Source of the DNA: a virus
Length of the DNA stretch: 43,263 nucleotides
IMG/VR virus record: IMGVR_UViG_3300045988_018894
Location: 1-43,263 of that record
Reading direction: 5' to 3' (one strand)
The translations under genes and the position numbers were made by a program. Below are positions 3,545 to 24,579 of this stretch, in pieces (position 1 is the first letter of the stretch; each line of letters begins with the position of its first letter). Below the pieces are notes generated by a model. The model was given only the letters and a program-made list of their open reading frames with translations. It was not told the DNA's origin and did not search any database.

Positions 3545-3590
3545 TTAGGTGTAGTTTACGCTATATAGCGGCAGTGTAAACTGTGCCTAA
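3545..3590. other. Candidate attP core for the serine integrase
   Basis: Imperfect 15-bp inverted arms, TTAGGTGTAGTTTAC (3545-3559) and GTAAACTGTGCCTAA (3576-3590), match 12/15. They flank a 16-bp centre containing the perfect palindrome GCTATATAGC. The patch is AT-rich and abuts the int stop codon. Confidence 0.4.
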
Positions 3591-4903
3591 CGCGTGGTTA
3601 CAAAAAATGCGCCATTGTTGTCGGCGTCAATGCGCTTGATGGTGCGAGTCCAAAATTCTTTTTTTTCGATCCGCGAGAGCCCTGGATACTGTGCGATGGC
3701 CTCATGCAAACTGGCTATGTCTGGGGGATCTGGAGTCTCAACTTGCGCGGCGTGGAGCTGCTCCTGCAATTTGTCATAGTCGGCGCGATAGGTTGGCATA
3801 TCAATCATCTCTGCGAGGTACAGTTCTTTCAGCCGATCAAGCTTGCGCAAGATCTTGGCTGGGTCAATCCGAGACTTTCTCTCGCGCCCCTTTTTGGTTG
3901 AAGAGTAGGCCGTTTTGACTATATGCTCCAGCTCTGCGAGTAGGTATATTTCGAGTTCCGATTCGCGGACCCGTTTGGTATGTGGGCAAGCCGTAATATC
4001 AAGCATGTGGGAGCGGCAACGATAATAAGTGTAAACTTTCTTGACTGTCTCGGACTGCATCGATCGGCCACATTCGCGGCAATAAATCAGCCCAGAGAAC
4101 AAATATATGTGAGGGGTTTCGACTCCGCTGCATCGCTGTGCTTGCTTCGCGATGATCTCCTGCGCCAAGTCGAAGTCCTCTTTGGATACAAGCGCAGGGA
4201 TCCGATTAGGTATACCGTGTACCTCTCCGATGTAGAGACGGTTCCGGAGTGCGCGATTAAACGTGTTGTACACGGCATCAATGCCCCACTGATCCATCAT
4301 ATATCTACGCGTAGCGTTGACGCTGCGCGTTTGGATATAATGCGTAAACATTGCTTGCACGGCGGGGGCGTCTTTCGTCTGAACGTAATCCCCATCCTTG
4401 ACCATCAGCCCGATAGGAGCCTTGGAGCTGATGGGTACACCCTTGGCTCTTCGACCATCGTTTACAAAGCGAATCCGCTCACTGGTTCTGTCGGCCTCAT
4501 CCTGCGCGACGGAAAGCATGATGTTGACCTTTAGCCGTCCTGCGGCGGTCTGGGTCTCATAGTTCTCCTCGGTGGCGCACCACGTCACACCGGCTTTTTC
4601 GAGGACGGGCTGGACGGCGTAATAGTCCGCGACATTTCTAAACCAGCGGTCGAGTTTGATAAAATAAATGGTGTCGATCTTACCGGCCTCGCAGTCCTCC
4701 AACAAGCGTAGGAGCGCCGGCCGCTTTTTGTAAGGCTTGCGGGCGGAGATCCCCGCGTCCTCGTAGATGCCCACGACCTCAAGGCCGTGGGCTTTGGCGT
4801 AGGCAAGGAGTCGCGCTTTTTGCTCCGCGAGGGAGTATCCATGGCGGGCTTGCTCCTCGCTGGAGACGCGTACATAGAGCGCGGCGCGTATTTGCTTTGG
4901 CAT
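3587..4903 (-). CDS. int: Large serine recombinase (phage integrase), 438 aa
   Basis: Resolvase-type N-terminus AALYVRVSSEEQ with catalytic-Ser context, a recombinase domain, a Cys cluster (CRECG...YYRC...CPH) and a C-terminal coiled coil. Confidence 0.9.
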   Translation of the reverse strand: MPKQIRAALYVRVSSEEQARHGYSLAEQKARLLAYAKAHGLEVVGIYEDAGISARKPYKKRPALLRLLEDCEAGKIDTIYFIKLDRWFRNVADYYAVQPVLEKAGVTWCATEENYETQTAAGRLKVNIMLSVAQDEADRTSERIRFVNDGRRAKGVPISSKAPIGLMVKDGDYVQTKDAPAVQAMFTHYIQTRSVNATRRYMMDQWGIDAVYNTFNRALRNRLYIGEVHGIPNRIPALVSKEDFDLAQEIIAKQAQRCSGVETPHIYLFSGLIYCRECGRSMQSETVKKVYTYYRCRSHMLDITACPHTKRVRESELEIYLLAELEHIVKTAYSSTKKGRERKSRIDPAKILRKLDRLKELYLAEMIDMPTYRADYDKLQEQLHAAQVETPDPPDIASLHEAIAQYPGLSRIEKKEFWTRTIKRIDADNNGAFFVTTR

Positions 4904-4906
4904 GGG

Positions 4907-5314
4907 TTACCTCCTGATAAATCCGATTTTGCCGCATAGGATATCGAGCGTCACCCCGTACACCAGCACGACAAGCGCAAGGATAAATAGGGCTAAAATG
5001 ATCCTCTTTTTTGTTGCAATTGATCTCTCCAGCATAGCGCATCGCTCGTCGCCGAACGCGATCTGCTGGAGCAGGAGCTTGCGCTCGGAGTCTGAGACAG
5101 GCTCATCCTGCGGGTTGATTCCAAAAAACTGGTTGATCGATACGCCGAGTACGGCGCAAATGGGGCCAGCCGTGTAAACGGACGGAGCCTTTGACCCCGC
5201 CGTAAAAAAGTTGCTGACTGTTGAGATCGGGACGCCGGATTGCTCTGCAATGTCTGCGTTGGTCATCCCTTTGTCGTGCCGAGCCTTACGGCACAGATCC
5301 TGCAAACTGTCCAT
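4907..5314 (-). CDS. XRE-family HTH protein with C-terminal transmembrane anchor (135 aa from the ATG at 5314)
   Basis: HTH GMTNADIAEQSGVPISTVSNFF and C-terminal hydrophobic span IILALFILALVVLVYGVTLDIL. The stop is 3 nt from the int start. Start uncertain: the track ORF extends to 5434. Confidence 0.65.
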   Translation of the reverse strand: MDSLQDLCRKARHDKGMTNADIAEQSGVPISTVSNFFTAGSKAPSVYTAGPICAVLGVSINQFFGINPQDEPVSDSERKLLLQQIAFGDERCAMLERSIATKKRIILALFILALVVLVYGVTLDILCGKIGFIRR

Positions 5315-5476
5315 TTGGATTACAGTACATCTCCTTTTTGTCTCCCCGCATCTTGGCACAGATGCCAAGATGTGGGGAGTGAGCTTCTGCGTGCGCATGC
5401 CAGCAGACTGAGTTGCGATATCAAGGGCGTACATGATACGATAGACGCAACGGGGCGGTTATAGCCCACCGCTCCT

Positions 5477-8834: not shown

Positions 8835-9026
8835 TTATTCTCCCTTCTCCAGCATGTCCGCCGCCGCCCGCAGATCATCCGGCAGCATAATTGGAACCTC
8901 ATAGATATTCGCCTCAGCCCACTCCGCGTATTCGCGCAGCATCGCAATAAGCCCCTCCCGCGTCGGCTTTTCAGCGATCGCGTCAGCCATTGCGCCCATA
9001 AACGTTCGGTCGTCAGTCAGTCCCAT
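8835..9026 (-). CDS. Hypothetical protein (63 aa)
   Basis: ATG at 9026 follows GGAGGCGGCG and overlaps the end of the upstream gene by 14 nt. Confidence 0.5.
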   Translation of the reverse strand: MGLTDDRTFMGAMADAIAEKPTREGLIAMLREYAEWAEANIYEVPIMLPDDLRAAADMLEKGE

Positions 9027-9915
9027 CGCCGCCTCCAAAAAGATCCATCTGCCCGCTGATAATGCCATCCTCCATCCACCAGTGCCACCATGACATGATA
9101 TCTCCCTTTGCGGCCTGCTTTGGGTGCTTATCAAGATAGTGCTGCAGCGCCCGCATATACGCATCCTGATATTTCGGCCAACGCGCGAACTCGCTGGATC
9201 TGGCCGCGCCGCCTATCGGGCAGCCTACGCACCCCACGCGGTTAAATCCCATGTCGTAGCAGGGGTTATAAGCAAGGTTCTCGCCCCGGATAAACTCCCA
9301 CACGTCGGTATTTGCCCAGTGGATGATCGGGTTTACGATCGTGCCGCCCCGCACTTTGCACGCAGAAATAAACTTGTCATCATGCTCGATGGAGCTGCGA
9401 CGCACATCGTCCTCAAACAGTTCCGCCGCGTTTTCTGCGTTGATCCTGTAGCTGTCCGCCTTGGTCTTTCCGCGCGTCTCAAGTTCCCCTCGAGATGCTC
9501 GCTGCGAACTCTCGTCGGCGCGAACGCCTGTCGCGATAGCCCGGTTTGCCCCGTGCGTCTCTTTGAGCACCGCGCAGCAAAATCGCCGCAACCTTGTCGG
9601 CAAGCCTTTATCGCCGATCAACTTCCACATGCTCGTGCGCTCTCCCTTGTACGTCGGCATGTTTACATAGCACTTCACGCCCGCCAGTTCCAACTCGTGC
9701 ATCTGCTGGCGCACATACCGCACGGTTTCCGGCGCATCCGCCGTCGTGTGCGAGTGCTGTACCTCGTAAGGGATTCCCGCGCGCCTTGCAAGCTCCAGCA
9801 GCACAAGGCTGTCTTTGCCGCCGGAATTGCAGATAAGCAGTGGCTGCTTGTAGTAGTGCAGGCTCATTCGGCTGCCGAGCTGCAAAAGGTTGATTGCCTG
9901 CTGTTCTTTATCCAT
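9013..9915 (-). CDS. PAPS reductase / PP-loop ATP-pyrophosphatase family protein (300 aa)
   Basis: PP-loop NSGGKDS near the N-terminus and a C-terminal Cys cluster NPCYDMGFNRVGCVGCP. Confidence 0.75.
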   Translation of the reverse strand: MDKEQQAINLLQLGSRMSLHYYKQPLLICNSGGKDSLVLLELARRAGIPYEVQHSHTTADAPETVRYVRQQMHELELAGVKCYVNMPTYKGERTSMWKLIGDKGLPTRLRRFCCAVLKETHGANRAIATGVRADESSQRASRGELETRGKTKADSYRINAENAAELFEDDVRRSSIEHDDKFISACKVRGGTIVNPIIHWANTDVWEFIRGENLAYNPCYDMGFNRVGCVGCPIGGAARSSEFARWPKYQDAYMRALQHYLDKHPKQAAKGDIMSWWHWWMEDGIISGQMDLFGGGDGTD

Positions 9916-9958
9916 TTCTTACCCCTTTCACACCGCCACGATCTCGTCTCTTGTCATG

Positions 9959-11815
9959 TCATTCCTCCCCAAACCACTTTTTCGTCACTGCGATGGGGAA
10001 CGGCTCGATCTCGCTTGCCCACCGCGCCGTGCCTTTCCCGTGTATGCGCTCCCAGATCAGCGGGAACCCTCCGATGCCGTCGAACAAGCTCCCCAGCGTC
10101 GCGCCCTCCGGCAGATACCGCGCCATGCGCCGCAGCATCCATGCCCAGAAGGGAAGGGCGATAGAATTGCCCAGCGCCTTATAGCGCGGGCTGTCCGCAC
10201 TTCCTTTCACTTTTATTTCGCGCCCGCGTTTATCTGTTTTAACCCAATCTCCAATGTCTGTCCATCCGTCCGGGAATCCTTGCAGCCGTTCGCACTCCAT
10301 CGGGGTCAGACGGCGCACCACCATGTGCTGCCGGACCGTGTTGTTCAGGTTAAGGCTCTGCCCGCTTTCTTTCGCTTGAAGCGTGCCGTTTACCTCTCCG
10401 CCCTCTCGGAAATTGCGGCAGTCTACGCTTGCGACATACGCTGACATATCTGCGCGGTATGGGTCGTTTCCTTTTGCCCTTAGAGATGGGGATATTTCGC
10501 TCGACACTACCAGCATATCGTTGTATGCGTCCTGCCCGTTGTAGCTCCCGGCATGAGCGCCGGGGGAAAGCGTACCCGTCACAGCTTGGTATGTCAGCGG
10601 CACTTGATTTCCGCCTGTTCCCATTCGTGCCTGCAGGCTTGGTGCCTGCTCCCCGCACTCGCGGATGACGTCGCAGGCGTGTGTCATGTCCAGCGCCACC
10701 ACTGCTGGTTTATTCCCGCCGCACTCGGCATTCAGTGTAGGGGACAGCTCCTCCTGATAGCCGATGCTCCGTGCCTGTTCACTGTTGCCCAGCTTAAACC
10801 CGGCACATAGTACGCTGTCCCGTGCCATGCCGCCGTTCTCGTTGGCATTCAGACTGTGCCATACGCCATTCTGATCGTACACCCTTGCGCTCTGCGCATC
10901 CCAAGGATTCATGCACGAAACCTCCGCGCACACAGCAGGGCGGTCTATTGTGTTCAGCGTGTAACTCTCGTCCGCTTTCCATCCCTTACCGTTGCATCCG
11001 GCGGTATCGGCGCGGTCAATGCCGTTGCCTTGCAGGCAGAAAACCGTCTGATCGTTTCCCGTGCCCAGCGTTCCGCTTTTCTCTGCCGTCACACCCCCGG
11101 ATGCGGACTGCAATACGATGTTTGGGCCTCTGTCGGCGCAGGGGCTTCCGTCCGCTCTTGCGGTGAGGCTCCTTGCGACTGCCGGATTAAAACCGCTTTC
11201 AGCCGCTCCGGCAAATCCTTCCCCCGCCGCTCCGCTCTCCGCAGGATGCCCAGACACGCTTTCGCGGTCAAATTGTATTTGGGCAGCGGATTCACCTCCA
11301 AAATCTGCGACAACCGAGATTCTTCGGCGACGCTGTGGGGTCCCCAGACGGATAACACCTCCTGTACGGCTGTCTCGGATGGTTTTTCCCCAGTCCTTAG
11401 CGTCGTGAGTTCGCCAAGCGATAGACCACCCATCACCGTCAATGGCTCCTGTTTTTGTCCATTTCCACTTTTCCGGCAGTCCAGATAGAGAAAATCCTGG
11501 TTCTGCGATACGCGCAATTTCTTCCAGCACGGCTGCAAAGTCTTTTCCTTTGTTGCTGCTGAATGCGCCGACAACGTTCTCCCAAACGAGAAACCGAGGT
11601 CGGACCATGTCACCTGTCCGTCCATTCCGTTTGTCCTCCTCCCTCATTTCTTTTACGATGCGCACCTGCTCCATAAACAGGCCGCTTCGCGCTCCCGCCA
11701 AACCGGCGCGTTTTCCGGCGATGGATAGATCCTGACACGGGCTGCCGCCCGTCACCACCCACACCGGCTCAATCTCCGCACCGTTTATCTTGCAGATGTC
11801 TCCCAAATGAACCAT
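9959..11815 (-). CDS. DNA (cytosine-5)-methyltransferase, 618 aa, with atypical motif order and a very long variable region
   Basis: The N-terminal part carries GGSPCQDLS (motif IV), WENV (VI) and QRRRR (VIII). RRLTPMECERLQGFPDGWT and GNSI (IX/X) lie near the C-terminus. SLFDGIGGF (motif I) and ASEIEP (II) fall in the last 48 residues. Confidence 0.85.
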   Translation of the reverse strand: MVHLGDICKINGAEIEPVWVVTGGSPCQDLSIAGKRAGLAGARSGLFMEQVRIVKEMREEDKRNGRTGDMVRPRFLVWENVVGAFSSNKGKDFAAVLEEIARIAEPGFSLSGLPEKWKWTKTGAIDGDGWSIAWRTHDAKDWGKTIRDSRTGGVIRLGTPQRRRRISVVADFGGESAAQIQFDRESVSGHPAESGAAGEGFAGAAESGFNPAVARSLTARADGSPCADRGPNIVLQSASGGVTAEKSGTLGTGNDQTVFCLQGNGIDRADTAGCNGKGWKADESYTLNTIDRPAVCAEVSCMNPWDAQSARVYDQNGVWHSLNANENGGMARDSVLCAGFKLGNSEQARSIGYQEELSPTLNAECGGNKPAVVALDMTHACDVIRECGEQAPSLQARMGTGGNQVPLTYQAVTGTLSPGAHAGSYNGQDAYNDMLVVSSEISPSLRAKGNDPYRADMSAYVASVDCRNFREGGEVNGTLQAKESGQSLNLNNTVRQHMVVRRLTPMECERLQGFPDGWTDIGDWVKTDKRGREIKVKGSADSPRYKALGNSIALPFWAWMLRRMARYLPEGATLGSLFDGIGGFPLIWERIHGKGTARWASEIEPFPIAVTKKWFGEE

Positions 11816-11818
11816 ATC

Positions 11819-12142
11819 TCAACCTCCAGACACCACGCCGCACTCGTCCTTCGGCACCATCGCCGCAACATCTGCGGCGGCCAACTCGCGCAGGCGGTCG
11901 ATGCCGCCACATTCTCCGATCACCGTGCAAAGGTCGCTCCAATCTTTTTGAAGTGCGGTCACGTACTCCGGCTCCAGCCCCGTGTCCTCGTATGCGGCGA
12001 GGCGGCTCCACGCCGCTTCTTCCCACTTGCAATTCATGGCGCAGTTGCCACCAACTTCGCGGCATTCGGGACCGTAAAAATGTGTGCAACAGATACCGTT
12101 TTCGTGCGATGTTTGCTTGCTATGTTTTGTCAGTCGTTCCAT
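11819..12142 (-). CDS. Hypothetical Cys-rich protein (107 aa), MERLTKHSKQTS-type N-terminus
   Basis: Its 5' 45 nt are nearly identical to those of 8097..8474. Contains an AAYEDTGLEPE motif. Confidence 0.65.
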   Translation of the reverse strand: MERLTKHSKQTSHENGICCTHFYGPECREVGGNCAMNCKWEEAAWSRLAAYEDTGLEPEYVTALQKDWSDLCTVIGECGGIDRLRELAAADVAAMVPKDECGVVSGG

Positions 12143-12143
12143 A

Positions 12144-12311
12144 CTATTTTTTACCCTCCTTTATCATTTTCGCGACGATGGGCCACGCCGCTTTAAACCA
12201 TTTTCCCCAGCGGCGGCATACGCGCCCGTTATCATGGCAAACCGGCTCACGCGGGCAAACCGCGCACGGGGACTGTGGGACGGGGGACTGCGCGTCTGCA
12301 TGGATCACCAT
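12144..12311 (-). CDS. Small Cys-rich protein (55 aa)
   Basis: The ATG at 12311 overlaps the RusA-like stop (CAATGGTGA). Confidence 0.45.
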   Translation of the reverse strand: MVIHADAQSPVPQSPCAVCPREPVCHDNGRVCRRWGKWFKAAWPIVAKMIKEGKK

Positions 12312-12679
12312 TGCGTCACCTCCACTTTGATAGATCCGCCATGCCACACCTCATGCGTGACACGACGCACCCACCTTTGGTTGTCGTCCGGCAGGATCCA
12401 GCCCTTTAGGGCGTCGACGATTGCCTTGCCGATGACGGCATGGTTGTCGATATCGAGGCGATCGTCCCACAAAAACCGGATTGATACCGGAGCAGACGTC
12501 AGGCGACGCGGGATACCGGCTTTGCGCAGCGCTGCGCGGGTGATTGCGTGCAGCTCCTCCGCATCGCGCTTGCGCTGTTGCCAGCACTTGCCGGCGTAGT
12601 AGGCATTTAACCCGTAGCGCTTGTTCCACGCGGCCTTCCCGCGCTGCGTCGGCGGGTATTGGATTGTAAACTCAGTCAT
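12305..12679 (-). CDS. rusA: RusA-like Holliday junction resolvase (124 aa)
   Basis: DIDNHAVIGKAIVDALKGWILPDDNQ matches the RusA D-x-D-N...K...D...DD signature. Confidence 0.7.
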   Translation of the reverse strand: MTEFTIQYPPTQRGKAAWNKRYGLNAYYAGKCWQQRKRDAEELHAITRAALRKAGIPRRLTSAPVSIRFLWDDRLDIDNHAVIGKAIVDALKGWILPDDNQRWVRRVTHEVWHGGSIKVEVTQW

Positions 12680-13323
12680 ATGTCACCCCACGTCATGTAT
12701 TTTTCCAGATTCGCGCCCGCGTAATTGCAGTCCGGCAGGCCACGGCTTTTAGGCGGCGGGGATTTGGCGAGGCGATCAAAAATGATCCCCTGCCAATTGC
12801 TGGACATGCACCTGTTGATCAAGTCGACCACGGCCTGATCCCCGTACTTCTCGGCATTGTGCCGGATCTCGGAGACGAGGGCGCGTAACCCCTCCGGTTT
12901 GTAGGCTTGATTTTTCTCTGATTTATACCGGATCCACGACTCCACCGCACCCCGCAGCGCCGGAGAGAGTCCGCTCAGATCCGGCGCCGGGGTTCGGCAC
13001 ACCTCTTTTTTGGGCAGATTTGCTGGGGGCTGTGGGGTCGGAGGAGGATCCTCGCGCTTAACCGGCTTCTGCGGTGGATCCTTTTTTGGATGCGCCCCGC
13101 CGGCACGTCCTGCGGCAGCTTTTTTCTGCGCGCGGACAAGCTGGGGCAGGATCAGCTCCACGGCGACCGCCACGATGGGTGGGAGAACGTTGAGGTCCGG
13201 CAGCTCTCCGGCCAGCGCGAACCGCTGGAGCGCGTCATAAAATGCGCACCGCTCGACCGGATCCTCGATCCGGTCGGCGGCGCGGGCGTATGCGGATGTA
13301 AAGGCAAACTGCTCCCGCTCCAT
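12676..13323 (-). CDS. DUF6291-like / replisome-organiser-like protein (215 aa)
   Basis: The N-terminal pattern FAFTSAYARAADRI...FYDALQRFALAGELP...ILPQL and the C-terminal pattern W..Y...K...Y...G...W.GIIF are recalled from phage replication-organiser proteins. A Pro/Lys-rich linker joins them. Confidence 0.45.
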   Translation of the reverse strand: MEREQFAFTSAYARAADRIEDPVERCAFYDALQRFALAGELPDLNVLPPIVAVAVELILPQLVRAQKKAAAGRAGGAHPKKDPPQKPVKREDPPPTPQPPANLPKKEVCRTPAPDLSGLSPALRGAVESWIRYKSEKNQAYKPEGLRALVSEIRHNAEKYGDQAVVDLINRCMSSNWQGIIFDRLAKSPPPKSRGLPDCNYAGANLEKYMTWGDI

Positions 13324-13332
13324 TGCTCCTCC

Positions 13333-13746
13333 TTAAAACGGAATATCTCCGTCCTCGTCTGCCTCATCAAATCCGGCTGCAGACACGTCTATGGGTCTTC
13401 CGGCGGGCTTTACGGCATCCCGCTGTTTGGATCCTCCGGCAAAGTAAACGCTCTCTGCGGCGATCTCGACCGCCGTGCGCCTGGATCCGTCTTTGGCCTG
13501 ATATGCTCTGGACTGGATCCGGCCGGTTACGACGATCGGATCGCCCTTCGCAAAGTAGCGGGTGACAAACTCGGCGGTCTGACGCCACGCGACCACGTCG
13601 ATGAAGTCCGTCTCCTTGTCGCCGGACTGGGACTTGAAGTCGCGGTCGACGGCCAGAGAAAAGCCGGTGACAGGGGTTCCGGACTGCGTTCTGCGCAGCT
13701 CGGGGTCGCGGGTCAGGCGACCCATAATGACAATCTTATTGAGCAT
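13333..13746 (-). CDS. ssb: Single-stranded DNA-binding protein (137 aa)
   Basis: OB-fold N-terminus MLNKIVIMGRLTRDPELR and acidic tail DEADEDGDIPF. Confidence 0.95.
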   Translation of the reverse strand: MLNKIVIMGRLTRDPELRRTQSGTPVTGFSLAVDRDFKSQSGDKETDFIDVVAWRQTAEFVTRYFAKGDPIVVTGRIQSRAYQAKDGSRRTAVEIAAESVYFAGGSKQRDAVKPAGRPIDVSAAGFDEADEDGDIPF

Positions 13747-14190
13747 TTACTTGTCCTCCGTCCCGAGTGTGCGCTGCTCGGAGAATTTGTAGATCAGGTG
13801 GGCGGCGTAGGAGATCGCCTGTGCCAGATCCAGCTCGGACGATCCACGCAGCTTGCTCCACGCGTAGGAGATCTCCTTGCCGCCATCGCAAAGGGCGAGA
13901 CGGATGCGATCCGGCTTTGTCTGCAGAGTGAGACTGTACCGCCCGCCGGGGGCGTGATACACCTCCGTTTTGGGCGGCGTCTCCCGCGCCAGAAACGCGT
14001 CAGGATCAACACCGGCGACCTCCACAAGCAGCGGATACGCCGATGCAGAGATCGAACCTCTCGCGAGGACGTTGGAAAAATACGACTGGGTGCGCCCCAT
14101 GCGGCGCGCAAGATCGGCCATCGTGTAGCCGCTGGCCACGCAGTGTCTGCGGATGGCCTCCGCGTTGATTTTTACATACGCTGATTTCAT
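13747..14190 (-). CDS. HTH DNA-binding protein (147 aa)
   Basis: N-terminal XRE-like HTH GYTMADLARRMGRTQSYFSNVL. Confidence 0.6.
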   Translation of the reverse strand: MKSAYVKINAEAIRRHCVASGYTMADLARRMGRTQSYFSNVLARGSISASAYPLLVEVAGVDPDAFLARETPPKTEVYHAPGGRYSLTLQTKPDRIRLALCDGGKEISYAWSKLRGSSELDLAQAISYAAHLIYKFSEQRTLGTEDK

Positions 14191-14208
14191 GTTGCTGTCT
14201 CCTTTTTG

Positions 14209-14484
14209 TTACAGATAGTTTTTACCAAATGCGCGGATAAAATCATCCACGCTCCAACCCTGCTCCTGCATACACTTCAGCTGACCGTAACGGCGCAGAC
14301 GGCGCATCTGGTCCCCGTTACGGTGGACGGAGGACGGGCCAAAGATGTGGCATCTGTTATGGCACAGGTACACAGTCAGCCCGTAGACCTCGCTTTTGCG
14401 GCGGTACGCGCCGCCGAAGATGTGATGCTCGTCAAGCGGATCATCCGCACCGTTGCGCCCACACAAAAAACATCTGCGCTCCAT
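14209..14484 (-). CDS. NinG/HNH-like zinc-finger protein (91 aa)
   Basis: CFLCG...DEHHIFGG..R..S..YGL...LCHNRCH pattern. Confidence 0.5.
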   Translation of the reverse strand: MERRCFLCGRNGADDPLDEHHIFGGAYRRKSEVYGLTVYLCHNRCHIFGPSSVHRNGDQMRRLRRYGQLKCMQEQGWSVDDFIRAFGKNYL

Positions 14485-14486
14485 CG

Positions 14487-15020
14487 TCACCGCCCTCCCC
14501 ACTGCTCAAGCAGGAGAGACTGCTCCCGCGCGGAGAGCGTCTCAATCCCCGCCGCCTTGCAGTCCGCGACAACTTGCTCGATCAGCTGGGACATTTGGCG
14601 CGTATCATACGTCGACGAGCCATACCATAGGCGCACGTTGATCATCCCCCCCAGTTTGGACGGGAACTGATCGGCCATCCAGCCGATGCCGTTGTGCGCC
14701 CACTCGCGGCAGAGCTTGTCTGCGGCAGAGGCCTTAACGCACACCACGTCATACGCGCCGCCGATCATACGGATCTGCTCACGGTAGATCTCGTCAGGCG
14801 GCAGGGAGTAGTGATCTGCCAGGCGGTTTACCAGCGCCCAATAGTAGGCGTTTGCGTCGAGGCTGCGCCCTTTGCGGGTAATCTTGGCCGTATATTCCCG
14901 CTCCGGACGGAGCGCGTCGCAGACGGCCATCGCGCTTTGCGGGGACGATACGCGCAAGCAGAGCCACGCGCCGTCAGAGTCCTGCTGCCAGCGCGCGCCG
15001 GACACTGTCACCTGCTGCAT
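14487..15020 (-). CDS. ninB: NinB/Orf-family recombination mediator (177 aa)
   Basis: RSLDANAYYWALV and YGSSTYDTRQMSQLIEQVVADCKAAGIE parallel lambda NinB RSLDQNRKLWACL and GQSTSRMRVGEFAELLE. Confidence 0.75.
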   Translation of the reverse strand: MQQVTVSGARWQQDSDGAWLCLRVSSPQSAMAVCDALRPEREYTAKITRKGRSLDANAYYWALVNRLADHYSLPPDEIYREQIRMIGGAYDVVCVKASAADKLCREWAHNGIGWMADQFPSKLGGMINVRLWYGSSTYDTRQMSQLIEQVVADCKAAGIETLSAREQSLLLEQWGGR

Positions 15021-15595
15021 GGGATATCCTCCTCTCGCGGCCAGCGGCCACACTTGAGGCACGCCGCCAGGTATTTTAGCCGCGGGAGATACGCCCGCTC
15101 GATCCACTCCGCATCATACGGGATCGGGTGCCTGGATATCCGGTCCATTTGGATCGGGAGGAAGTAGTTGCCGTACTCGGCATCCGTGAGCCGGTAGGCG
15201 ATGATCTGGCACTCCTTCCGGCGGCGGAGTCCGTGGCCGGAGGCGAACATCTCGACCTGACACTGCTGGCGATACGCCTTTGAGACGGCAAAGGGCTTAT
15301 CGCCCTTGTGCGTTTTGACCTCGCAGATCGTTGCAGGGGTCTCGCCGTCGAGGTTTACGCGGAGCCTGAGCGACGGGATGCGGATCTGGCGGTCACGCTC
15401 CACGATGCCGAGCGCGTCGAGGATGCGATGCTCATACGCCGTCCCCGCCCGCATAGCGGGCGAGGAGAAGGTCTCCGCGCGGATGCCGAGCTTCACCGCC
15501 CACCAGCGCCGGAACGACTCGGTGTCCCACGCGCGCATGATCTGCGCCGTGTCACTGGCGCCAAACCAGCCGGAGCGATCCTGATCGTGGATCAT
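15008..15595 (-). CDS. YqaJ-like (lambda-exonuclease-fold) recombination exonuclease (195 aa)
   Basis: WFGASDTAQIM, GTAYEHRI, NLDG and EVKT motifs typical of PD-(D/E)xK YqaJ proteins. Confidence 0.8.
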   Translation of the reverse strand: MIHDQDRSGWFGASDTAQIMRAWDTESFRRWWAVKLGIRAETFSSPAMRAGTAYEHRILDALGIVERDRQIRIPSLRLRVNLDGETPATICEVKTHKGDKPFAVSKAYRQQCQVEMFASGHGLRRRKECQIIAYRLTDAEYGNYFLPIQMDRISRHPIPYDAEWIERAYLPRLKYLAACLKCGRWPREEDIPCSR

Positions 15596-16236
15596 AGTTT
15601 GCTCACCGCCCGCTCCAGATGGTCGAGGCGATCAAACCAGCCCATCATGGTGGCCAGCTGCTTATCGTTGAGACCGAGGGCGGCGAGGACATCGCGATGA
15701 CTCATGCCGCGCTGCTCCTTGGATGTGATGAGCCGCTCAAGGCGCTCCTTGATAGCGTAGATGTTGTGGCGTGATAGATCGTCCTCTCCGTCATCTCCGT
15801 CGCCGTCCGCCCAGAGGGAGAAGCCGAGGCCGGTGCGGATCGCCACGCCCTTGACAAAGGCGCGGGCGAGGGCATTGTTGATCCGGAGCTGATTGAGGGT
15901 ATCCTCATAGACCACAAGCGTGCCGTTGAGGAGCGGCATGTCGTAGTTAAAAACCAGCTCGTCGATGTGGATCTCCACGCGGACGAACCAGCACTCCGTC
16001 ACGCGCCCCTTGCTCGTCTCCACGCGCATCTGCGGCCAGAGGTAGGTATGGGTACTGGGGCATGTTACGGGCGCGTAAAACACGCTCTCTGCGCCGTTTT
16101 CGTGCAGGAGCTGGGCGCATTTTGCCCAGCTTAGGTAGGGAACCTTGATGATGTTCCCGCGCTCGTCCTTCGCGTCGCGGACGGAGCAGTACGGGCGGAC
16201 ATCGAGCTGCACCAGCTCGGAAAAAGGCTTCAGCAT
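15592..16236 (-). CDS. Sak3/DUF1071-like single-strand annealing protein (214 aa)
   Basis: VPYLSWAKCAQLL and VKGVAIRTGLGFSLWADGD match the recalled Sak3 pattern YLSWA...GLGLYLYAGED. Paired with the YqaJ exonuclease. Confidence 0.7.
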   Translation of the reverse strand: MLKPFSELVQLDVRPYCSVRDAKDERGNIIKVPYLSWAKCAQLLHENGAESVFYAPVTCPSTHTYLWPQMRVETSKGRVTECWFVRVEIHIDELVFNYDMPLLNGTLVVYEDTLNQLRINNALARAFVKGVAIRTGLGFSLWADGDGDDGEDDLSRHNIYAIKERLERLITSKEQRGMSHRDVLAALGLNDKQLATMMGWFDRLDHLERAVSKL

Positions 16237-16574
16237 GCTCTTCCCTCCTTCCACTCGCCGAAGGCCATCTCGGAGGCGGTGTGCTCCTCCCAGAGGCGAT
16301 CGATGTACGCCAGCTGGTCAGCCGTAAAGCAGCCAAGCTGGAGCCGGAGCAGGCTGCGCGTCGCGAGGCGGCAGTGCGGGCAAAGCAGATCGGATTTGTT
16401 TTTGTCCCCGCCGCAAACGGGGCACTCGTCGGCCTCGTATTCGTCGAGGTTGCCCAGTTCCTCGCCGCAGTTCGGGCAGTAGATGTCGGTGACGGGGCCG
16501 TACTCCGGCGAGTCGTAGTGTTTTTCCAGCGGCTCGGTAAACGAGCCGCCGCAGTTATCGCAGATGTATGTCAT
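16230..16574 (-). CDS. Zinc-ribbon protein (114 aa)
   Basis: Four CxxC pairs (CDNCG, CPNCG, CPVCG, CPHC). RBS GAGGAGGAG. Confidence 0.65.
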   Translation of the reverse strand: MTYICDNCGGSFTEPLEKHYDSPEYGPVTDIYCPNCGEELGNLDEYEADECPVCGGDKNKSDLLCPHCRLATRSLLRLQLGCFTADQLAYIDRLWEEHTASEMAFGEWKEGRAC

Positions 16575-20865: not shown

Positions 20866-21267
20866 GTGGCCGAGGTGATTAATCCGCGCAAGCGCAAAAA
20901 AATCGTGGCCGACTATGTGGCGCTGGGATCATACGCGGCAGCGGCGCGGATCAACGGCGTGGCACCCAACAGCGTTAAGCGGATCGTGGCGGCGGAGCCG
21001 GAGATCGCGCGGCTTTGCGCACAAAAAAAAGAACAGGATACGCAGGACGTGTTGGCGTACATGGGGCAGCAGTCCGATCTTGTCTGCGATATCATCGGCA
21101 AGGGGCTTACGGCGCTGGCCGATGAAGATAAGCTGGCAGCGGCCAACCCGGCGCAGATCACCACGGCGATCGGCACGCTGATCGACAAGTGGACGATGGT
21201 CCGCGACCGGCAGACGCAAAGCGGGGTACAGGTGGATCTCGGGGACGCGGAGGATTACAGCGGATGA
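20866..21267 (+). CDS. terS: Terminase small subunit-like HTH protein (133 aa, GTG start)
   Basis: Sits immediately upstream of terL with an ATGA overlap. N-terminal HTH-like segment IVADYVALGSYAAAARINGVAPNSVKRIV. The G8 run 7 nt upstream serves as the SD. Confidence 0.6.
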   Translation: MAEVINPRKRKKIVADYVALGSYAAAARINGVAPNSVKRIVAAEPEIARLCAQKKEQDTQDVLAYMGQQSDLVCDIIGKGLTALADEDKLAAANPAQITTAIGTLIDKWTMVRDRQTQSGVQVDLGDAEDYSG

Positions 21268-22691
21268 TCACGATCCACATCGACAAGCCCAACGCGCGGC
21301 AGGAGCTGTTTTTGCGCGATCGGCACAAGTACATCGCATTCGGCGGGGCGCGCGGCGGCGGCAAAAGCTGGGCGGTGCGCACCAAGGCCAAGCTGCTGTG
21401 CCTGCGGTATCCCGGCATACGATGTTTGATCGTCCGGCGGACGTACCCGGAACTGATTAACAACCACATCCGGCAGCTGCGGCAGGAACTGGCCGGTGTT
21501 GCGCGATATAACGATAAGGACAAGATCCTGATGATGCCGGGCGGCAGTTCCATTTCCTTCGCCTACTGCGCCAAGGACGGGGATCTGGACCGGCTGCAGG
21601 GCGTGGAATATGACGTGATTTTTTTGGACGAGGCGACGCAGCTAAGCGAGTATCAAATGACCACCATCACGGCATGTCTTCGCGGTGTGAACGCCTTTCC
21701 GAAGCGGGTGTACTACACCTGCAACCCCGGCGGGCAAGGCCACCAGTACATCAAGCGGCTATTTGTGGACAGGCACTTCTTGCCGGGGGAAAACTCTGAC
21801 GATTACGCGTTTATCAAGTCGCTGGTGACGGACAACACCGCGCTGATGCGGCGGGACCCGGAGTACATCCAGCAGCTGGAGGCGCTGCCGGAGCGTCTGC
21901 GCCGGGCATGGCTGAACGGGGATTGGGATGTGTTCTGGGGCCAGTTTTTCGAAGAGTTCGCGGACGCGCCGGCACATTATGATGATCGGCGCTATACGCA
22001 CGTCATCGCGCCGTTTGAGATCCCGCCGGACTGGCGGATCTATCGGTCGTTTGACTGGGGCTATGCCAAGCCCTTCTCATGCGGGTGGTGGGCGGTCGAC
22101 TACGACGGATGCCTCTACCGGATTCTGGAGCTGTATGGGTGTACGCGGGAGGCGAACACCGGACTTAAGTGGCCGCCGGACAAGGTGTTCGCGGAGATTC
22201 ACCGGATCGAGACGGAGCACAGGTGGCTGAAGGGCAAGATGATCACGGGCGTTGCCGATCCGGCCATCTGGGACGCGGAGCGCGGGGAGAGCATCCAGGA
22301 GACTGCCGCGCGGCACGGCGTGTACTTTTCGCGCGGGGACAACCGCCGCATACCGGGCTGGATGCAGATGCATTACCGGATGGCATTTGACGAAGCCGGG
22401 CGGGCGCAGATGTACATCTTTTCCAACTGCCGCGCGGCGATCCGCACGATCCCGCTGCTGCAGTACGACGATCACCACGTCGAGGATCTGGACACGACCG
22501 GCGAAGATCACGTCGCCGATGAGATGCGGTATCTGTGCATGGCGAGGCCGATCAAGCCCCGCGTTAAGCATGGGCGGGATCCGTATCTGGATAGCCCGCT
22601 GTACACGGCGCTCGATATCCCGCGCGAGGACATCCTCCCCGCGCCGGATTTGGCGCCGATGACGATCAAGGAGGTAACCGATGGCGATTGA
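21264..22691 (+). CDS. terL: Terminase large subunit (475 aa)
   Basis: Walker A FGGARGGGKSW, Walker B-like VIFLDEAT and a C-terminal nuclease-like region. Confidence 0.9.
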   Translation: MITIHIDKPNARQELFLRDRHKYIAFGGARGGGKSWAVRTKAKLLCLRYPGIRCLIVRRTYPELINNHIRQLRQELAGVARYNDKDKILMMPGGSSISFAYCAKDGDLDRLQGVEYDVIFLDEATQLSEYQMTTITACLRGVNAFPKRVYYTCNPGGQGHQYIKRLFVDRHFLPGENSDDYAFIKSLVTDNTALMRRDPEYIQQLEALPERLRRAWLNGDWDVFWGQFFEEFADAPAHYDDRRYTHVIAPFEIPPDWRIYRSFDWGYAKPFSCGWWAVDYDGCLYRILELYGCTREANTGLKWPPDKVFAEIHRIETEHRWLKGKMITGVADPAIWDAERGESIQETAARHGVYFSRGDNRRIPGWMQMHYRMAFDEAGRAQMYIFSNCRAAIRTIPLLQYDDHHVEDLDTTGEDHVADEMRYLCMARPIKPRVKHGRDPYLDSPLYTALDIPREDILPAPDLAPMTIKEVTDGD

Positions 22692-24579
22692 TAACGGCGG
22701 CGTGGAGCAGATCGGCTCCGAGGCTGCGATCAAGGCGGCTGATGTCGTGGAGACGGTGGTGGGTGCGGAGCAGATTTGCGAGGCCGTGGACACGCTGAAC
22801 CGCTACAAGCAGGGCAAAGCCAACCTCGAGCGGCGCGTGATTGACGACGAGGAGTGGTATCGCCTCCGGCACTGGGAGTGTATGCGGGGGCGCAAGCAGG
22901 ACGTGGAGCCGGTCTCGGCGTGGCTGCTTAATGCGATCGCCAACAAGCACGCGGACGCGATGGACAACTACCCCGCGCCGAACATCCTCCCGCGGGAGCA
23001 GGGGGACGTGGAGGAGGCCGAGCGGCTGAGCGATATTGTCCCGGTGGTGCTGGCGCAGGAGGGCTTTGAGCAGGTTTATTCCGACGAGGCGTGGGACAAG
23101 CTGATCGGCGGCACGGGCATATACGGTGTGTTCTGGGACGCGCACAAGCTGGGCGGGCTGGGGGACATCGCCATCGAGACGGTGGATGTCCTCAACCTGT
23201 TCTGGGAGCCGGGCGTGACGGACATCCAGGACTCCCCCAACGTGTATCACCTTAGCCTGATGGATAACGACGCGCTTGTCAGGATGTACCCGCAGTTGGA
23301 CGGGCATCTGGGCGGCAGCAATATCGACGTCAGCAAGTACTGCTACGATGATGCCGTCGACACCAGCGACAAAAGCGTGGTGGTGGACTGGTATTACAAA
23401 CGCTCCGTCGACGGGCAGATGATCCTGCACTACTGCAAGTTCGTGGGGGACACGGTCCTCTATGCAACGGAAAATGAGCGGGAGCCGGATGCGACAGGGC
23501 GTAGCATGGCAGATCGCGGCTGGTACGATCACGGGAAGTACCCATTTGTGCTTGACCCGCTGTACCGATGCAAGGGGACGCCGTGCGGCTTTGGCTATGT
23601 GGACGTAGGCAAGGGGGCGCAGGAGTACATCGATCGCGGGGAGCAGGCGATCATGCGCAATATGTTATCCAACGCGGCCCCTCGGTTTTTCGTCCGCGCA
23701 GACGGCGCGGTGAACGAAGAGGAATACGCCGACTGGACGAAGCCGTTTGTTCACACGGACGGCAATCTGGGGACGGACTCCATCGCCCCGGTGACCGGAT
23801 ACGGCCTAAGCGCCATTTACCTGTCAGTACTGGAGCACAAGGTCGACGAGCTGAAGGAAACCACCGGCAACCGCGACGTATCTACGGGCGGCACGGCCTC
23901 CGGCGTTACGGCTGCGTCGGCGATTGCGGCGATGCAGGAGGCGGGGAGCAAGCTATCGCGCGACAGCAACAAGGCGGCATACCGCGCATTCCGCGAGGTG
24001 GTTCTACTTGTCGTCGAGCTGATTCGGCAGTTTTACGATTTGCCGCGGCAGTTCCGTATTATCGGGCAGAATGGCGTACAGCGTTTTATCAGCTATACTA
24101 ATGCCGGACTGCAGCCGCAAGTACAGGGCATGGATTTCGGGATCGACATGGGGACGCGCGTGCCGCTGTTTGACATCGACATCTCGGCGGAAAAGGCCAG
24201 CCCCTACAGCCGGATGAGCCAAAACGAACTGGCACTGCAGTTTTTTGGCGCTGGATTTTTCAATCCGCAGCTCTCGGATCAGGCGCTCGCGTGCCTGGAG
24301 ATGATGGATTTTGATCGCAAAGACGAGATCATGCAGCGGATCGCCGCAAACGGCACACTGTACCAGCAGCTTATGGCGGCGCAGCAGCAGGCCGTGGCGA
24401 TGGCGCAGCTTGCGGATACGCTCGGCGGGACAAATTACTCGCAGCAGATGCTGGCGGGGATGCAGGGCGGCGCACAGGCGGCACCGGGCAAGGTGGATCA
24501 GGCCGCCGCAGACGGCGGCGAGAGCAGCACGACGCGAAATGCGCGGCAGGAAGCGGCTGACAGAGCCGCACCGCGATGA
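22681..24579 (+). CDS. Portal protein (632 aa)
   Basis: Its position after terL, its size, RBS AAGGAGG and a typical portal N-terminal pattern (NRYKQGKANLERRVIDDEEWY). Confidence 0.85.
   Translation: MAIDNGGVEQIGSEAAIKAADVVETVVGAEQICEAVDTLNRYKQGKANLERRVIDDEEWYRLRHWECMRGRKQDVEPVSAWLLNAIANKHADAMDNYPAPNILPREQGDVEEAERLSDIVPVVLAQEGFEQVYSDEAWDKLIGGTGIYGVFWDAHKLGGLGDIAIETVDVLNLFWEPGVTDIQDSPNVYHLSLMDNDALVRMYPQLDGHLGGSNIDVSKYCYDDAVDTSDKSVVVDWYYKRSVDGQMILHYCKFVGDTVLYATENEREPDATGRSMADRGWYDHGKYPFVLDPLYRCKGTPCGFGYVDVGKGAQEYIDRGEQAIMRNMLSNAAPRFFVRADGAVNEEEYADWTKPFVHTDGNLGTDSIAPVTGYGLSAIYLSVLEHKVDELKETTGNRDVSTGGTASGVTAASAIAAMQEAGSKLSRDSNKAAYRAFREVVLLVVELIRQFYDLPRQFRIIGQNGVQRFISYTNAGLQPQVQGMDFGIDMGTRVPLFDIDISAEKASPYSRMSQNELALQFFGAGFFNPQLSDQALACLEMMDFDRKDEIMQRIAANGTLYQQLMAAQQQAVAMAQLADTLGGTNYSQQMLAGMQGGAQAAPGKVDQAAADGGESSTTRNARQEAADRAAPR

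Follow-up and report, generated by a model that had tools for sequence, protein, structure and literature searches.

We analyzed a 43,263-nucleotide (nt) stretch of viral DNA (IMG/VR record IMGVR_UViG_3300045988_018894, positions 1 to 43,263; hereafter the window) and found that a gene on its minus strand (9959..11815) encodes a 618-residue C5 DNA methyltransferase whose conserved motifs run in the order III-IV-VI-VIII-variable region-IX-X-I-II. With a probability of about 0.8, and with activity judged from the sequence, the product is an orphan C5 cytosine methyltransferase that is functional, belongs to a temperate Clostridia phage and represents a natural circular permutant in which the break separates motif II from motif III. 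A sequence-only reading of the window had proposed this order and break, and had added that the gene is not split, that its C-terminus joined to its N-terminus would read like a normal enzyme, and that the upstream gene lacks methyltransferase motifs. These proposals were borne out by the profile coordinates, the PDB matches and the re-permuted sequence described below.

Motif order and boundaries of the methyltransferase gene

The translated open reading frame (ORF) begins with MVHLGDICKINGAEIEPVWVVTGGSPCQDLS and ends with ...LGSLFDGIGGFPLIWERIHGKGTARWASEIEPFPIAVTKKWFGEE followed by the stop codon. In a search with the PF00145 profile the protein scored 91 bits (cut-off 22), and its residues 3-101 fell on profile positions 46-131 of 324. 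Since the alignment begins at profile position 46, the protein starts at motif III. When we rebuilt the sequence as residues 568-618 followed by residues 1-567, PF00145 matched without interruption from profile position 4 to 131, at an improved score of 105.6 bits. A PDB sequence search placed HaeIII residues 48-102 on residues 4-58 of the methyltransferase and HaeIII 258-290 on residues 487-518, and aligned HhaI residues 59-112 with the motif III/IV region. The same search aligned plant DRM2 residues 197-246 with residues 538-587 without a gap, so that motif X leads straight into motif I. The NCBIfam model TIGR00675 scored 89.4 on the methyltransferase, under its cut-off of 100.65, because the permutation breaks the match.

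The canonical motif I-II N-terminus had a single match in the whole window, at 9956-10099 on the minus strand, with 58% identity to the N-terminus of the canonical DNA-cytosine methyltransferase of Streptococcus phage Javan105 (E = 1e-10). The upstream ORF (11819-12142) is unrelated, and a Pfam search detected no methyltransferase domain in it; its TGA stop (11819-11821) lies in frame, two codons ahead of the methyltransferase ATG at 11815. A putative ribosome-binding site, GGAGG, is located 7 nt upstream of that ATG (11823..11827, minus strand).

Along the minus strand, the new N-terminus consists of motif III (HLGDI) and motif IV with the catalytic cysteine (GGSPCQ), which together occupy 11723..11809, with PCQ at 11732-11740; both were placed by the HaeIII and HhaI alignments and by the Pfam match from position 46. 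Motif VI (ENV, 11573..11581; E79, N80 and V81) and motif VIII (QRRRR, 11321..11335; Q161-R165) follow, and their residues were invariant in 45 homologues. An alignment of homologues delimited a long variable, target-recognition region at approximately residues 200-495 (10331..11218), which varies from one homologue to the next through modular insertions and deletions (995 alignment columns for proteins of 541-674 residues). No internal repeats, sought as a sign of a multispecific enzyme of the SPR/phi3T type with tandem target-recognition domains, were detected in this region of about 300 residues. Motif IX, RRLTPMECERLQGFPD (10268..10315), was identified by the HaeIII 258-290 alignment and by its invariant residues, and motif X, GNSI (10160..10171; G549-I552 invariant), by the alignment with DRM2 motif X. 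A helix and short linker, ALPFWAWMLRRMARYLPEGAT (10097..10159), within the gapless DRM2 alignment, connect the old C-terminus at motif X to the old N-terminus at motif I. Motif I itself, the AdoMet (S-adenosylmethionine)-binding LGSLFDGIGGF (10064..10096), fell on Pfam profile positions 4-36; the sequence-only reading had given 10067-10090, a stretch that encodes the motif I core SLFDGIGG. The motif II region, WASEIEPFPIAVT (9983..10021), contains the acidic residue for the AdoMet ribose and was assigned from the re-permuted Pfam match and the Javan105 match, with S601-T611 largely invariant; KKWFGEE and the stop codon (9959-9961) complete the gene. PCQ, ENV, QRRRR, RRLTP.E..RLQGFPD, GNS, FDGIGG and SEIE were all present, and invariant in the 45 homologues, and the relocated C-terminal piece as a whole was invariant or almost so, which we judge to be far beyond chance.

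Occurrence of the permuted order in independent genomes

A search of 5.8 billion proteins yielded more than 100 full-length permuted homologues with 54-97% identity from independent assemblies. Using a 131-residue query that spans the IX-X-I-II junction, we obtained 730 cluster representatives at E <= 1e-30 among 1.84 billion sequences searched; the best 150 junction matches were all one stretch, and nearly all finished at the protein C-terminus. IMG/VR contained at least 576 related stretches, and of the 80 retrieved for inspection 73 encoded the permuted order in a single ORF. The permuted type also accounted for 28 of the best 80 loci in bacterial genomes. The isolate Gemmiger gallinarum DSM 109015 has an intact permuted copy of 450 residues, frameshifted versions of the permuted gene are present in Toutatis and Lelie, two cultured Faecalibacterium phages, and the architecture was kept among sequences down to approximately 40% identity.

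Recurrence of this architecture in over 100 independent contigs, and in an isolate genome as well, shows that the permuted order is not an assembly artefact; a rearranged or chimeric assembly was one of the outcomes named in the sequence-only reading as overturning it. An artefact of assembly or rearrangement in this particular contig could be argued only from the general possibility that attends metagenomic contigs, and against the recurrence of the order in several sources, including the two cultured phages, its probability is negligible.

Some homologues (P0078, P0155 and P0250) carry inteins with Hint and LAGLIDADG domains right after the motif VI ENV (VWENV/CFAGETLV...VVAHN/CGAFSSN); these proteins are not encoded in the window.

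Canonical relatives and origin of the permutation

Comparison with the Javan105 gene displayed the rearrangement directly. Methyltransferase residues 573-617 matched Javan105 nt 1366-1494, which encode its first 45 residues, with 60% identity, and residues 3-194 matched nt 1501-2001, directly downstream of this motif I-II segment. The segment that matches the tail of the window protein thus lies immediately before the segment that matches its head, which makes the circular permutation explicit. The Javan105 enzyme and the C5 half of E. coli phage P1 Dmt belong to the same subfamily as the window gene and have the signatures LGSLFDG.GGFPL, WASEIE.FPI and VWENV.GAFSSN in common with it, but unlike the window gene they carry motifs I-II at the N-terminus and follow the normal I-to-X order. 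In a neighbour-joining analysis of 166 aligned N-terminal columns, the permuted and the canonical Clostridia sequences were split in 294 of 300 bootstraps.

We also identified a second, different permutant, P0137, as a complete 540-residue ORF in three independent contigs (L090 1637-3259; L091 1556-3178; L092 132-1754). Its order is part of the variable region-IX-X-I-II-III-IV-VI-VIII. It shares the X-to-I linker of the II/III permutants, while its II-to-III joint looks canonical, and it nests among the permuted sequences, with II/III-permuted genes as its nearest relatives (p-distance 0.21). Two unlike permutants with one common X-to-I fusion are what a duplication-fusion-truncation model predicts. 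Most likely, a canonical gene would have been duplicated in tandem and fused in frame, after which the outer parts would have been lost, and the permutation would have arisen once, in a lineage of Clostridia phages. Along such a route, the nested second permutant would provide rare direct support for the model.

Selection on the relocated segment and predicted function

We estimated selection from a codon alignment of 33 non-redundant loci. Over the relocated residues 571-615 the amino-acid identity was 0.84-0.85, and the synonymous differences were 0.45-0.55, which is the gene-wide level; for the motif II region the corresponding values were 0.85 and 0.49. Since a high amino-acid identity is combined with normal synonymous divergence, the relocated motif I-II segment is clearly under purifying selection.

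The best PADLOC model was 'orphan methyltransferase' (E = 1.8e-77), with a match that starts at profile position 48. No endonuclease gene adjoins the methyltransferase; its neighbours encode PAPS-reductase-like, RusA, SSB, DUF6291-like and small unknown proteins. In the folded enzyme the chain would run from motif III through the catalytic motifs IV-VIII and the target-recognition region of about 300 residues to motifs IX-X, and would end, after the short linker, with motifs I-II. The C-terminal beta1-alphaA-beta2 would be expected to lie beside the N-terminal beta3 and so to complete the usual AdoMet-binding sheet. The chemistry should be ordinary, with Cys27 attacking C6 before the methyl group is transferred from AdoMet, and the likely role would be self-methylation of phage DNA against host restriction.

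A conserved overlapping ORF in the +1 frame

The methyltransferase gene contains a second ORF of 178 codons in the +1 frame (11089..11625, minus strand), which lies over methyltransferase residues ~64-243, that is, over motifs VI-VIII and the linker. Its ATG at 11625 is preceded at 9 nt by GGAGG (11635-11639, minus strand). The +1 frame was open for 144-192 codons in 45 of 45 single-chain permuted loci, where it always begins past a TGA formed by the invariant Met57-Arg58 codons. Once synonymous codons were shuffled, the proportion of trials in which it stayed open was just 0.2-26% (median 9%), and elsewhere in the methyltransferase gene +1-frame stops occurred at 0.045 per codon. The synonymous differences of the main frame, at 0.45-0.6 in the baseline, were only 0.05-0.12 over residues 166-210, where variation became greatest at position 1 of the main-frame codons, the wobble position as read in the +1 frame. 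All 33 non-redundant loci had a +1-frame ATG or GTG at one of two sites, with AAGGAG or GGAGG 9-10 nt upstream that moves along with the start site.

The +1 frame is therefore open beyond expectation, shows suppressed synonymous change and has its own start signals, as an overlapping gene should. Protein-coding selection on this frame is well supported. We also considered programmed frameshifting as a general source of the +1 signal; this was unsupported, since at every locus the +1 ORF comes with a start codon and ribosome-binding site of its own, and roughly half of them have no slippery run near its stop.

The overlapping ORF extends beyond the permuted lineage. In canonical relatives the +1 frame was open in 30 of 30 loci for 135-163 codons, compared with a +2-frame median of 38, and Javan105 and the C5 half of P1 Dmt have the same +1 ORF as the window gene. 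In phage P1 dmt (L097) it spans codons 99-262, reading ...LLSQVLEQTSIPQRYFLSSKACAGILRRGEKRRKSLPPLLQMAL, and is the only opening of at least 60 codons in either alternative frame of this 755-codon gene. Further examples lie at L002 1700-2062 and L152 2544-3116, and a tblastn search matched the ORF in 118 phage records. The methyltransferase is the only gene that RefSeq annotates at the locus in 493 E. coli genomes, and we found no report of an overlapping ORF in P1 dmt in open-access papers. If expressed, the +1 ORF would be a widespread hidden phage gene that is accessible in a model phage.

The first 100 residues of the +1 product are predicted to be disordered, and its C-terminus to form a three-helix block with a predicted local distance difference test (pLDDT) score of 78-92. 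This conserved block (SRLSQILE..PKYNLTAKACLGILRRAERRGKDLPERLKAVLIRQ; 11176..11325, minus strand), recognized by its predicted helices and invariant residues, lies over motif VIII and the linker that follows, and it coincides with the drop of main-frame synonymous differences to 0.05-0.12. The +1 protein had no match in Pfam, NCBIfam, PADLOC or the PDB sequences, and a Foldseek comparison of its model with the PDB returned nothing at E <= 0.001.

Homopolymer runs and joining of the two frames

A run of five G residues (11094..11098, minus strand) lies just ahead of the +1 stop codon (TGA, 11089-11091). Homopolymer runs mark the points at which the two frames are re-joined in relatives (L003-L076, L030, L060, L082 and L094). 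In about half of the relatives the run before the +1 stop is G6-G7, and one extra G re-joins the +1 frame to the variable region, giving one ORF for the catalytic half and another in which the +1 protein continues into the variable region and motifs IX-X-I-II. We found the +1 frame joined to this second half of the enzyme in P0126, P0180 (four contigs), L030, L060, L082 and L094, and the same joining in the canonical L173, L176 and L177. Several database proteins switch frame at another site, which in the window is the A5 run in TGGGGAAAAACC (11383-11387).

We considered whether such frame-fusing database proteins prove a split enzyme and rejected them as proof. Many can be explained equally well as ordinary frameshift mutants, which stay open because neither frame is closed; the junctions fall at several places, often at A5 or G runs. 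The frame-joined forms could represent genuine two-chain enzymes, phase variants or simple frameshift mutants.

Taken together, these features suggest a broader reading, which we put forward tentatively and at slightly worse than even odds. The locus would be a dual-coding gene in which an ancient, unannotated +1 gene of about 145-190 codons, found from P1 dmt to gut Clostridia phages, overlaps motifs VI-VIII of the whole subfamily, and its product, with a disordered N-terminus and a three-helix C-terminus, would work with or regulate the enzyme. In many lineages a G6-G8 run would determine whether the variable region and motifs IX-X-I-II are attached to the catalytic half or to the +1 protein, which would make a phase-variable one- or two-chain methyltransferase. 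With its two nested permutations, one at II/III and one in the variable region, the family would still document, in its present members, how permutation proceeds by duplication.

Two groups of relatives show particular frame arrangements. Toutatis gp14 and gp15 (L001 3001-4412), both annotated as 'DNA methyltransferase', are one permuted gene that is frameshifted between motifs VI and VIII; gp14 comprises motifs III-VI fused to the helical block of the +1 frame, and the gp15 frame comprises motif VIII, the variable region and IX-X-I-II. A widespread lineage (L083-L087, 2813-4397; P0012, P0290, P0302 and P0307) has a frameshift exactly between the Cys and the Gln of PCQ and also an in-frame stop ahead of the variable region, and its +1 ORF is intact (186 residues, 18 contigs).

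Alternative explanations

Several observations weigh against a functional natural permutant of single origin. Frameshifts are common in related lineages (7 of the 80 IMG/VR loci, Toutatis gp14/gp15, and the L083 lineage broken at PCQ), and the methyltransferase gene is therefore frequently dispensable. With the distant outgroups phage P1 and Javan105 the root of the tree was unstable (support 28/200), so that the single origin rests on the unrooted split. An AlphaFold2 model of the full protein, built with 45 homologues, had a mean pLDDT of 33; since this model is unusable, completion of the fold in cis rests on engineered precedent. The same frequency of frameshifted and truncated relatives, together with the TIGR00675 score below its cut-off, could suggest a relic without activity, or a protein that binds DNA or AdoMet but does not catalyse, with the C-terminal motif I-II as a leftover of rearrangement. 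All catalytic and cofactor motifs are intact and invariant, however, the relocated segment is strongly conserved in amino acids at normal synonymous divergence, and the architecture persists at low identity, and we therefore regard a relic as very improbable.

The remaining alternatives concern how an active enzyme would be assembled. It might work only as a domain-swapped homodimer or oligomer, in which motifs I-II of one chain complete the AdoMet pocket of another; the X-to-I linker extends only ~6 residues past the last helix, no usable model displays cis packing, and M.MpeI split at the II/III boundary yields fragments able to complement each other in trans (PMC5944983). The N- and C-termini of canonical C5 enzymes lie close together, however, and a linkerless fusion left the activity of engineered Class B permutants undiminished (PMC5944983), and the X-to-I junction of DRM2 is of equal length and aligns without a gap; we thus consider an obligatory swap unlikely. 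Another possibility is that the enzyme needs the +1 product and acts as a two-polypeptide complex, with the helical block supplying an element after motif VIII that the main chain lacks. Throughout this methyltransferase family the +1 ORF is conserved and under purifying selection, certain lineages have it joined in frame to the half that carries the variable region and IX-X-I-II, and M.EcoHK31I and M.AquI offer an analogy. Moreover, the engineered fragments Mpe[62-279] and Mpe[280-61] are active together (PMC5944983). On the other hand, the +1 protein is predicted to be mostly disordered and has no detectable homology to methyltransferase parts, and the L083 lineage keeps its +1 ORF despite a disrupted methyltransferase frame, a hint that the +1 product functions independently. 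Such a complex is a minor possibility, and a single-chain, functional permutant remains our preferred reading.

Phage genes in the window

The window resembles a complete temperate phage of ~43 kb, and related contigs measure 40-45 kb. Besides the methyltransferase it encodes a large serine recombinase, a helix-turn-helix repressor-like protein, a Sak-like annealing protein, SSB, RusA, a terminase large subunit and a P22-like portal; these markers lie at 3587-4903, 4907-5434 and 12305-16254 on the minus strand and at 21189-24579 on the plus strand. A PAPS-reductase-like gene (9013-9915, minus strand; PF01507; PADLOC BrxP/DndC-like, E = 1.6e-23) adjoins the methyltransferase. Such a neighbour recurs in many related phages (L094 4201-5277, L152 1710-2495, L088 and L089), and in P0015 the PAPS-reductase-like gene is fused to a truncated methyltransferase.

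Comparison with known permuted and split methyltransferases

C5 DNA methyltransferases are a textbook case of fixed motif order. Departures from it were studied by Albert et al. 2018, who built 21 permutants of M.MpeI and M.SssI and found that the 'Class B' constructs, in which the chain begins between motifs II and III, far surpassed the others in activity (PMC5944983). The II/III breaks cp62M.MpeI and cp58M.SssI led all 21, cp62M.MpeI being comparable to the wild type, and active enzyme was also obtained from the fragments Mpe[62-279] and Mpe[280-61] (PMC5944983). In REBASE the same authors found 27 natural permuted C5 methyltransferases, all with breaks in the variable region and none at II/III (PMC5944983). 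This agrees with the sequence-only reading, in which a II/III break was not known among natural permutants. Because all known natural permutants break in the variable region, they concluded that nature favours routes that keep the two domains intact, and they proposed that the II/III topology was selected against, perhaps through weaker AdoMet binding (PMC5944983). We found no natural II/III permutant in the later literature, including papers that cite Albert et al. 2018, in a search of open-access papers that did not include a REBASE query. As far as can be told, the window gene represents a natural topology not previously described. A large natural II/III family would mean that the proposed evolutionary constraint is not real, and it would offer natural proteins for testing the AdoMet-affinity idea and ready scaffolds for split or targeted methyltransferase tools. 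It also explains why profile-based annotation under-scores such genes.

The new N-terminus of the window gene lies between motifs II and III (Pfam position 46 corresponds to HaeIII residue 48 and HhaI residue 59), and motif X is covalently joined to motif I, as seen in the DRM2 alignment and in 150 of the 150 junction representatives listed; both are the features of Class (Type) B. In engineered cp62M.MpeI and cp58M.SssI, too, the chain starts after motif II and before motif III, and motif I follows directly on motif X. Those two are laboratory constructs of CG-specific mycoplasma enzymes, whereas the window gene belongs to a natural, widespread phage lineage of another subfamily and has a variable region of ~300 residues. 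The 'Type H' enzymes M.BssHII, M.Alw26I, M2.Eco31I, M.Esp3I and M2.BsaI are also permuted PF00145 enzymes with motif X ahead of motif I, but they break in the variable region, place IX-X before I-VIII and keep both domains intact. The window gene does not have this arrangement: its IX-X come after VIII and the variable region, and its break falls within the AdoMet-binding subdomain, separating beta2 from beta3; P0137, unlike the window gene, has a Type H-like order.

Plant DRM2 (PDB 4onj, 7l4c) has an X-to-I junction of the same length, gapless on residues 538-587. In enzymes of the DRM type motifs VI-X come first and I-V last, so that the chain is broken at the V/VI boundary, and the two DRM2 PDB matches fit this order. 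The window gene lacks a V/VI break, its motifs IV, VI and VIII being contiguous at the N-terminus, and the eukaryotic DRM enzymes are not close relatives of it. The beta-class N6/N4 amino-methyltransferases have motifs IV-VIII, then a target-recognition domain, then X and I-III. They resemble the window gene in that the catalytic region is followed by the target-recognition region and then the AdoMet region, but they differ in chemistry and family, and in the window gene motif III stays with the catalytic half.

M.AquI and M.EcoHK31I are two-polypeptide C5 methyltransferases, and in M.EcoHK31I the gene for the beta chain is nested within the alpha gene in a different frame. Similarly, some relatives of the window gene are split after motif VIII into two ORFs, and the window methyltransferase gene resembles M.EcoHK31I in that an alternative frame within it specifies a second, predicted polypeptide. 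In contrast to these systems, the overlap in the window family spans ~145-190 codons, its predicted product has no recognizable methyltransferase motif, and the methyltransferase itself is mostly a single chain, including that of the window.

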